From: Octopus vulgaris
Lineage: Eukaryota
DNA length: 64,000 bases
Reading direction: 5' to 3'
NCBI GenBank assembly: GCA_951406725.2
Contig: OX597816.1
Span: forward strand, 107,384,001 to 107,448,000
A program made the position numbers and the translations under genes. Positions 49,001 through 52,000 of the stretch are shown piece after piece (within the stretch, counting starts at the first letter, position 1; every line of letters begins with the position of its first letter). The notes under the pieces were generated by a model. The model was not told the origin of the DNA. It searched no databases and saw only the letters and a list, made by a program, of their open reading frames with translations.

Positions 49001-52000
49001 TAGCATAGTAGTGGTTAGCTTGAATGCAAGGGAACATAGTGGTCAGCTAGAGTGCCCGATGGCTCAGAGTGCATAGCATAATTATGTTGTAGTAGCATCA
49101 GAAACCTATTTTGAAGATCTGTCCATTCTAGAACACTGATATGGCTTTGTCCAGCATTTACACTTTTATGTATAAAAGTACTCCTTTTTCTGTATAGTTA
49201 TAAACTTGCATTCAGTAAATGTTACTTGTAGTTGTTTTACCATAAAATAATTTACTCTTGGGTGTAGCATGTGTCAGTATACTTTCCTTATATAGCACAC
49301 AGAAGGATGATGTTCTTTTGACAATTTACAGAAAGTCAGTTATTATTGAGTTTATAACCTCAATAAAAAAAACTCAACTGTTTTATAGCTTTTGTCTTTT
49401 TTTCTATAACTAAAAAGATTTTGTTTATGTATTTCAATGTTTTTTTTTTATTATTCTCCAACAGTGATGTTGCTGTGTTCAGCCTCATTATTTGTAGTAA
49501 ATCCCTACATAGCTATTTGTGTTCCAAACTCGAGTCACTGTCTTCTTCAATAAAAGTTTACTTAGTGAAAATCACCAGAAAAATAACTTAAGGAGGTTAA
49601 GTAGGGCATTAATGTGGAAGATTTTATCCCTCATATGTACACAGAACACCTCCCTATTGTAAATGTGCTACTGCTAATGCAGTGTGTATGTTGGCATATA
49701 TGCTTGTGTGTTTTTATGTATTTGTGTAATTGTGCATGTATATATATATATGTGAATTTTATGCATTTATAAATAACATACAAGTTCAAATTGGTAGATG
49801 GCTATAAGACTGGAAGGTATATTTCTATATTTGGGGTCCATTGCACAATATATCCCTGTTTCCCTCTTCTACTCTCTGTTTATTTCCTACTCTTTTATCC
49901 GTCTATCGCTCATCTTTTTATCAATGACTCTTTCTCTTTTAAGCCAAACTGTTTCTATTCACTTATCCACTGCCTGAATAAATAGGGTGTGTTTTGTGTA
50001 AAAACTAGATTTTAGGAACGTGCATGTATGAGTGTGAGTGTATATATGTATGCATATATATGTATATATACTGTATTTATATCCACTAGCACTCTCATTG
50101 TTGTGTATGTAAGTATGTACACATTTTCCTTATATATTGAATGGCATAAGGGCAAACTATATTTGAAAAATATTAATTATTCTATTAATTTATAACACCT
50201 TAATTTGTAACTAGTTTGAGTGCTAAAATACGGAACTCACTGCCCTTGAGTCACTCTGTTACTTCTGCTAAATATTAATTTATATAGTTATATTTTGAAA
50301 GATATGGAGGTATCAAAATACTTATTCACTTTAAGGTAATATTTAGTCTTCTATGTAGCCATGAAATAGACATATAACCTGTAATCAGATTTGTAATTTT
50401 GTAATTTTGGATGAATTCATATGCAGTGGGTAAACATGTTTGAAGCTTAACCTTGCGTAAAAAAACTACAAAAATGAAACAAATATATCGTAGCTTATGT
50501 ACAAGAGAATTATGCAAAGATTGAGTAAATAAAATAGCGAACTAATTTAATTTCAATTTAGATTAATGCTCAACGATAAGATATATATTTAAATGTCATA
50601 ATGACGTAAGGGAAATAACCCTGTCCTTAAAGCTAAGGGAGGCCACTCTATCAGCACCGAAAACTGACTTGTCAATAAAGAAACTTCCTCGACAACGACC
50701 AAACGGTTCTCGCCATTTATTAGTCTATCAAAGAAAAAGAATATATTAGATAAAACCGTTCTAGATACACAATACCCGAGAAAAGAACAGGACTTTTTTG
50801 GTTACAAATCTATCTAATTACAGTTAACCTAGTGTTAAACAATTATTTGAACAGACTAGTGATCTTTGCTGATTTCTGTTGATAACTATCATCATCATCA
50901 TCATTTAGCGTCCGCTTTCCATGCTAGCATGGGTTGGACGGTTCAACTGGGGTCTGGGAGACCAGAAGGCTGCACCAGGCCCAGTCTGATCTGGCAATGT
51001 TTCTTGAAGGTGCTGTAGTGTGAAGAGGAAAATTCTTAAGTTCTACTAATTATACAAGACACTTATTTCTACACCACTCCAACCATACTATCTCCCCACT
51101 TTTTTTCATACTGTTACTCCAGATTATTCCATTACCATTCAAGCACATCAAACGGAATACTCTATGTGTGATAATAAAAGATTTAGGAAAAACTGAAGAA
51201 AATGTCTTTCTTAACCATTTTACTGCATACTGCATACCTGCTGCATGAAGACTTACTAGTAAGGTTTGTGTTAGGCTATTTATATAAAGCCAAGAAACCT
51301 TAATTATGTCATTAGTTATATAGCTAAGTTAGCAGAAGAACATTGAAACTCTAAAATAGTTTGGTGGGTTGGACATGAATGCAGTTTTCTTCAAGTTAGT
51401 AAAAAAATGATTGCAGCGTGGAAGGTGTTTGTAAGCCATTTAAGAAACACACAAAAGCCGTTCGATTCACTTAAACATTTAAGTTTAATTTGTCAAAATA
51501 TTTTCGTCGCTATACGACCACGACCTGTTCACTGATAAAAATCTGTGCTGCATCCGAGATGTAGCATGGATTTTTGTCAGTGAACGGTCTTATAGCGACG
51601 AAAATATTTTGACAAATTAAACTTAAATGTTGAAGTGAATCAAACAGCTTTTGTGTGTTTCTTAAATGGCTTACAAACACCTTCCACGCTGCAATTGTTT
51701 TCGTTCCAGCACATGATCTCAGATCAAATCACTTGCTATGCAAGTACATCTCAGTAAAAAAATGACTGCTGTTGAAAGGCTGTCAATGTGTGCATACTTG
51801 TTATGAGTAATTCTGGCCAAACAATACTGAAAGACAAATCCTCAATATTGGGAATGAATCTGACTTTCAGCAGTACAGTGACAAATGTAGGCATGTTTCT
51901 ATATCATCCCATCAAGGAAGTGTAATCTTACCATAACAGCAAAATGTAGTGATGGAGAACACTGAACGAGGTAACACCATATAAGAATTATTTCAAGATT

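Follow-up and report, generated by a model that had tools for sequence, protein, structure and literature searches.

Head-to-head pLTR copies of an endonuclease-bearing Penelope-like element in Octopus vulgaris carry a putative natural G3-C8 hammerhead

The insertion and its components

The stretch of DNA analysed here (the window) comprises 64,000 nucleotides of Octopus vulgaris contig OX597816.1 (assembly GCA_951406725.2, positions 107,384,001 to 107,448,000 of the forward strand). Between positions 51398 and 51765, it contains an insertion built of two pLTR copies in head-to-head orientation, flanked by a target-site duplication (TSD) in A-rich sequence and joined at 51555/51556 (Table 1). 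An extra G is present on both arms, and each arm stops at a different 3' end point: relative to the cut site predicted for a hammerhead-like motif, end mapping of copies places the end of the minus arm about 86 nt downstream and that of the plus arm about 144 nt downstream. A repeat search aligned the arms in two blocks, one of 116 nt with 95% and one of 28 nt with 86% complementarity.

Table 1. Features of the insertion, in coordinates of the window.
Feature	Positions	Strand	Details
Left TSD, 13 bp, A-rich	51398..51410	+	direct repeat with 51753..51765
Inverted pLTR arm	51411..51555	-	from 5' end (extra G, 51555) to first 3' end point, no tail; end mapping
Minimal type I hammerhead-like motif	51489..51539	-	G3 (51532), C8 (51527), extra G, 5-bp stem II, palindromic helix III
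Forward pLTR arm	51556..51752	+	from extra G (51556) at common 5' start to second 3' end point
Broken motif copy	51573..51616	+	7-nt deletion removing A9, extra G and 5' strand of stem II
Initial codons of element ORF	51666..51752	+	translation from the same ATG in loci L096 and L102
Penelope-like element 'tail' between both 3' end points, 57 nt	51696..51752	+	plus arm only; end mapping
Right TSD, 13 bp	51753..51765	+	direct repeat with 51398..51410

An earlier note on this DNA, made from the letters alone, had described a hammerhead variant within a TSD-flanked palindrome. Its letters (the minus-arm core, the 7-nt loss from the plus arm and the 13-bp TSD) were re-read as given. The palindrome is real insofar as 51411-51555 and 51556-51695 are inverted arms but is impure, the tail being confined to the plus arm. 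A transcript across the whole insertion is predicted to fold into one long hairpin (-215 kcal/mol); Rfam miRNA-family matches of the window reflect this hairpin and were set aside. When the genome (2.8 Gb, 227 contigs) was searched with the arm, 1,899 candidates were returned, 40 of which were scored; the minus arm is 94-97% identical to the 39 other genomic copies among them.

The host element

The element behind the insertion, absent from the earlier note, was found in the follow-up. Followed upstream, longer copies lead via a microsatellite-rich region of about 1.1 kb to an open reading frame (ORF) with a reverse transcriptase (RT) motif (YVDD), a C-x3-CxxC linker and, at the C terminus, a GIY-YIG domain. 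The GIY-YIG match (Pfam PF01541, E 1.8e-5) lies above the cut-off; Pfam RT matches are weak, the YVDD motif having been seen directly. The predicted protein is 40-52% identical to its nine best RT-endonuclease matches. At locus L093 (minus strand, 3770-6845), the frame is uninterrupted over 1025 open codons, and at least 40 copies (including L106-L135) are 100% identical over 110 nt; to judge by these sequences, the family has probably been active recently.

Loci L096 and L102 have a pLTR on both sides of the ORF, which begins at an ATG inside the pLTR, 56 nt past the predicted cut site, so that in tandem copies the frame begun in the window's plus arm runs on into the RT-endonuclease ORF. Elsewhere, pLTRs occur in tandem and inverted, with optional tail and TSD. 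The single RT and GIY-YIG ORF and this layout identify the element as an endonuclease-bearing (EN+) Penelope-like element (PLE). Inverted 5'-truncated copies with a one-sided tail have been described for PLEs (PMC8557442; PMC3846280), as has the tail itself (PMC8557442; PMC11167929). A CxxC linker between RT and endonuclease is common to Neptune and Nematis (PMC8557442), and the CX2-5CxxC-type linker in the translation of L093 points to one of these two groups.

The earlier note's preference for target-primed insertion over a miniature DNA transposon (MITE) is thereby upheld. That the insertion is a DNA transposon derivative with a chance likeness to a hammerhead would be in keeping with its long inverted repeats and with the many insertions in TA repeats, yet variable 5' truncation, a one-sided tail and, where copies lie outside TA microsatellites, TSDs that mostly measure 12-14 bp speak against it, as does a hammerhead descriptor that, with positions 3 and 8 left free, found no match on either strand when the 64-kb window was shuffled 30 times. 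We give this explanation practically no credence, since continuity with the RT-GIY-YIG ORF refutes it. The copies read do not have fixed terminal inverted repeats at both ends with a short fixed TSD, and a terminal-inverted-repeat DNA transposon, suggested by locus L028, was rejected once other copies had been read.

The hammerhead-like motif

Read from 51539 to 51489, the minus-arm motif has G12 at 51505 and N17 at 51496, with the predicted cut between 51496 and 51495. The earlier note had every canonical element in register apart from an exchange of C3/G8 for G3/C8. For the core, apart from the exchange, this stands; it does not extend to stem I, which contains an A·C mismatch at 51536 (the family consensus is without such a mismatch), to the G between A9 and G10.1, which is an insertion relative to the classical core, or to helix III, which is a 6-nt palindrome (A15.1 to U16.1) and not an intramolecular stem. 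A palindromic helix III and an extra base after A9 are normal for PLE minimal hammerheads (PMC4209133). In the family motif, which sits in the pLTR of a PLE, a Watson-Crick 3-8 pair, U4, G5, A6, A9, G12, A13, A14, A15.1, U16.1 and H17 are in register, and the extra base between 9 and 10.1 is joined by a G10.1-C11.1 pair. The note had also considered the cleavage triplet UUU atypical, a judgement that we do not share: by our count, 24 of the 56 rows in Fig. S3 (PMC4209133) have U17, and the Crassostrea row reads UUU.

Among 140 aligned arms covering the motif, G3 is present in 136 and C8 in 134. A consensus of other genomic copies had been named as a check on the exchange, and in these arms G3/C8 is indeed the family consensus state, with full stem II complementarity. 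Because the literal core CUGANGA of the published descriptor is absent from this consensus, we class the motif as a variant lying outside that descriptor. The minimum-energy structure of an intact young-subfamily motif consists of stems I (7 bp) and II (5 bp), with z = -3.5 and none of 200 shuffles as stable; folding of the window's own arms did not rise above the shuffled background (z = +0.5, +0.4 and -0.25). Rfam covariance models gave no hammerhead match for the window or the intact copy, either at the gathering threshold or at E up to 10, and missed a C3-G8 copy of a sister family too.

The 3-8 pair across copies and relatives

The exact G3-C8 17-mer occurs 7,916 times in the genome, against 0 occurrences of a reversed-pattern control. 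Exact copies with other combinations comprise 260 with G3·G8 (about 3%), 62 with G3·A8 and 30 with C3·C8. Differences among subfamilies fall in loop II, in which three columns are 21-49% variable, and outside the stems; beyond CpG decay, none lies in the core or paired stems, and the youngest subfamily retains G3-C8. In four public runs, labelled as four organisms, no variant at a frequency of at least 2% was seen at positions 3 or 8; the variants present are located in loop II, affect CpG sites or leave a G·U pair in place (these data are contigs, in which RNA ends are not visible).

Copies with C8 changed to G are four times commoner than those with C8 changed to A and belong to several, mostly older, subfamilies (e.g. 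L215-L226, L283-L322). The 52 G3·G8 loci that were read represent several loop types, again mostly older, which leaves a single intermediate lineage unsupported; G8 is on both arms in three insertions, and five G3·G8 arms have a partner arm with C8. An RT error hot spot or ribozyme-dead sources may account for the excess.

The C3-G8 version of the 17-mer has seven matches in the genome. We rejected an ancestral subfamily as their source: six belong to an older sister family, and one (L183) is a lone copy. Among 30 sister-family loci read, 29 carry the motif, with C3-G8 in 27 of the 29 and, at pair 4 of stem II, A-U in 28 of the 29 where the G3-C8 family has G-C. A profile of the sister sequence downstream of the motif (from 20 of the 30 loci) scored all 13 tail-bearing copies of the G3-C8 family, at 4.2-21.2 bits; only five of 260 shuffles scored at all, the best at 9.5 bits. 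An alignment of single copies (pLTR versus sister copy) reached 83, against a shuffle maximum of 87.5, and so failed to exceed every shuffle. Related remnants of the GIY-YIG domain or the RT side are present at six sister loci, and a search for the full sister-family ORF mostly returned an inserted repeat. Because this C3-G8 family is homologous to the G3-C8 family outside the motif, the exchange is a double change between homologous motifs, and the earlier note's term 'compensatory' is apt relative to the sister family.

Protein relatives of the element from metagenomes (12 sequences, 32-49% identity) include four with the same architecture behind the ORF, three of them C3-G8 and one U3-A8; behind the ORF of the remaining eight, the sense strand showed no motif (in one case a motif lies on the opposite strand, and seven showed none at all, several of the contigs ending early). 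Throughout the 791 kb examined with positions 3 and 8 left free, all 11 distinct motifs from outside the family are Watson-Crick paired at 3-8 (seven U-A, four C-G).

Natural U3-A8 hammerheads have been published (Perreault 2011, PMC3088659; Schistosoma PLEs, PMC4209133) and resemble the octopus motif as natural covariation of the 3-8 tertiary pair. They keep the pyrimidine-purine order, whereas G3-C8 requires two transversions, via a mismatch. In the literature searched, mostly non-subscription papers, we found only engineered G3-C8 hammerheads and no natural one; the consulted parts of PMC6765202, PMC6155905, PMC13282606 and bioRxiv 10.64898/2026.07.22.740005 contain no mention of a natural case. 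As a matter of sequence and covariation, the G3-C8 variant is well supported; as a ribozyme, it is putative.

Copy ends and the origin of head-to-head pairs

Upstream of the predicted cut site, at a distance of about 58 nt, copies share a common 5' start marked by a cap-like extra G. This G stands where the element has C or T in 18 of the 29 non-palindromic copies that end at the common start and in 33 of 47 if palindrome centres, which are read twice, are included. The start site resembles an initiator. Reverse transcriptases can copy RNA caps, and we infer from these DNA junctions that the extra G is a copied cap. An internal promoter is known for Penelope (PMC2377424); a cap-derived G in PLEs was not reported in the literature searched.

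We regard it as quite unlikely that the common boundary is instead a splice junction or a non-templated addition by RT. The sequence upstream (L102:5195-5222) does resemble a 3' splice site, with a branch-point-like motif, pyrimidines and AG, and the Penelope intron ends beside its hammerhead (PMC4209133; PMC2377424). However, the copies retain the AG and, apart from a single G, have no exon sequence in common upstream of it, and no joint across the site was listed for the contigs, an argument that is weak coming from contigs. An HDV-like ribozyme at the 5' boundary was dropped by eye, as no P1 partner lies close enough. By eye, too, a short imperfect inverted repeat bounds the segment from the common 5' start to the first 3' end point (L102:5221-5365); microhomology from this repeat may underlie the internal jumps of L005, L014 and L029.

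The two 3' end points, at about +86 and +144, match the paired internal sites at which RT starts in the PLE PAc and which bound its tail (PMC11167929). Inverted pairs account for 68 of 117 loci, and 57 of them have one arm at each end point; of the rest, one has the second end point twice, none has the first twice and in 10 an arm is truncated. The arms end at different points in 28 of 31 pairs from sets chosen without regard to the tail.

These arm ends bear on how the palindromes form. Self-priming or fold-back of one template has been proposed for PLEs, with palindromic junctions as the argument (PMC3846280), and could hold together with the ribozyme reading. Pairs with both loops readable have identical loops in 19 of 33 cases, and 23 of the 27 classifiable pairs share a loop II class, as fold-back would have it. 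Against fold-back stand the different 3' sites of the two arms, both among all 68 pairs and in the sets unselected for the tail, and the differing arm haplotypes of the other four classifiable pairs (L002/L007, L023 and L309) and of L198, although gene conversion from another locus is possible. Since L002 and L007 are one duplicated event, the four amount to three independent mixed-haplotype events. Overall, we consider fold-back unlikely and favour two separately primed cDNAs, because the arms end at two sites and sometimes derive from different templates.

In this model, the transcribed RNA would be capped, would begin some 58 nt upstream of the predicted cut and would contain the motif in its 5' untranslated region (UTR), with the start codon at +56. 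The endonuclease would make a staggered cut in AT-rich DNA, and each DNA strand would prime reverse transcription on its own still-uncut RNA, one from +86 and the other from +144. Both cDNAs would run to the cap, leaving the extra G, and would then be joined, yielding a palindrome with a one-sided tail and a TSD. The window insertion agrees with this scheme: both arms carry the extra G, each end point is used by one arm, and the duplicated target is A-rich.

Cleavage: evidence for and against

The hammerhead 3-8 tertiary pair positions the 2'-OH of residue 8, and a G3-C8 pair would keep this arrangement, probably at a reduced rate; the active ribozyme would be made up of two RNAs that pair by their helix III palindromes. 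Engineered G3-C8 hammerheads are active, with reduced or context-dependent rates (PMC8495972; PMC3884650), and the hammerhead of PAc, which cuts only with protein, is partly rescued by engineered C3G/G8C (PMC11167929). We think the G3-C8 motif likely to be a natural variant of a slow self-cutting RNA.

Cutting has no footprint in the genome, since no copy starts at the cut site. With queries placed downstream of the site, none of 58 copies starts exactly at the predicted cut, and three start within 5 nt of it. All three belong to the window-type copies (28 of 29). Among 30 identical young copies, six extend far upstream, the start of 16 falls at -65 to -50 and that of eight at -49 to -6, which leaves none within 5 nt of the site; two of the 16 were re-read by hand, as TA repeats mislead the aligner. 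We therefore rejected the cut site as the 5' end of copies. The G3·G8 copies, some with G8 on both arms of one insertion, imply that templates without the pair are apparently copied too.

The motif might be a hammerhead descendant that no longer cuts usefully, its fold either kept for another job in the 5' UTR, such as protein binding or an internal promoter, or simply undecayed. Besides the missing footprint, this reading has in its favour that G3·G8 is enriched in older subfamilies (35 old and six younger loci, versus 16 and 12 among G3-C8; Fisher p = 0.012), that hammerhead mutants insert normally in vitro and no reads end at the cut site (PMC11167929), and that Naiad PLEs spread without canonical hammerheads (PMC8557442). 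It is at odds with the change of both positions 3 and 8, which restores a pair that matters in the catalytic fold, and with subfamily changes that avoid the core and stems while the youngest subfamily keeps G3-C8. We rate it a serious but rather improbable reading.

On balance, we think it probable that the insertion consists of two head-to-head pLTR copies of an EN+ PLE whose motif is a natural G3-C8 minimal type I hammerhead, likely still cutting slowly, as a dimer and perhaps with the help of protein. The window copy itself is probably inert, because its arms are damaged and locked in the long hairpin. More speculatively, and on our own estimate doubtfully, an active G3-C8 hammerhead may have become fixed in a system that integrates two capped, uncut RNAs at once, one per strand and each from a start site of its own: the half-ribozymes would meet in the integration complex, and a slowed, dimer-only ribozyme would serve as a timer, cutting the template only after two RNAs have been loaded.

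Relation to known systems

The octopus family is closest in form to the metazoan PLE minimal hammerheads (Cervera & de la Pena 2014, PMC4209133), with which it shares the site in the pLTR, the extra base between 9 and 10.1, the G10.1-C11.1 pair, a palindromic helix III that implies a dimer, the common U17 and a mostly dispersed occurrence as single or opposite-strand copies. It differs in its longer stem I (7 bp) and in the 3-8 pair: by our reading of Fig. S3 of that paper, 53 of the 56 rows are C3-G8, two U3-A8, one U3-G8 and none G3-C8, a state that the descriptors given there could not have found.

PAc, a Poseidon element of Anolis (Frangieh 2024, PMC11167929), is alike in that its tail is bounded by two 3' end points within the first part of the ORF, in its AT-rich targets, in showing no sign of molecules that end at the cut site and in the partial activity of engineered C3G/G8C. 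Its natural pair is C3-G8, however, its cut site is within the ORF and its tail is shorter; the octopus element has the motif in the 5' UTR, a tail of about 57 nt and a CxxC linker in its protein.

Neptune and Nematis EN+ PLEs (PMC8557442) share the RT, the C-x3-CxxC linker, the GIY-YIG domain, tandem and inverted pLTRs and a bias towards microsatellites; the octopus element has a microsatellite-rich 3' region of about 1.1 kb, and its likeness to them is one of linker and layout. Non-LTR retrozymes (bioRxiv 10.64898/2026.07.22.740005) are likewise short non-coding, PLE-derived copies with a type I hammerhead. They form head-to-tail tandems with a ribozyme in each unit, an arrangement not seen among the octopus copies, which are single or head-to-head and have an autonomous partner.

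Other elements noticed

A second inverted-repeat insertion lies in the window at 27975-28349 (arms of 150 nt, 93%); its plus arm carries, from 28279, a U3-A8 minimal hammerhead-like motif with a palindromic helix III, and it is probably another PLE family. On the minus strand of locus L020, a U3-A8 type I motif occurs twice in identical form, 370 nt apart (positions 128 and 498 when the locus is reversed), a retrozyme-like arrangement. Further U3-A8 and C3-G8 families were noticed at L072/L091, L073/L092, L034, L005 and L009. Also in the window are a tandem array with spacings of 296, 338 and 370 nt (25357-27980) and, at 40009-40439, a common SINE-like repeat present as inverted arms (160 nt, 91%).

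Significance

If the reading proposed here is true, G3-C8 joins C3-G8 and U3-A8 as a natural state of the key tertiary pair of the hammerhead, with a control already provided by the C3-G8 sister family, which is homologous and shares the genome. Standard descriptors would then miss whole families, in this case about 8,000 copies in one genome. The thousands of short insertions make testable how PLE inverted repeats with a one-sided tail arise and whether these elements need hammerheads at all.
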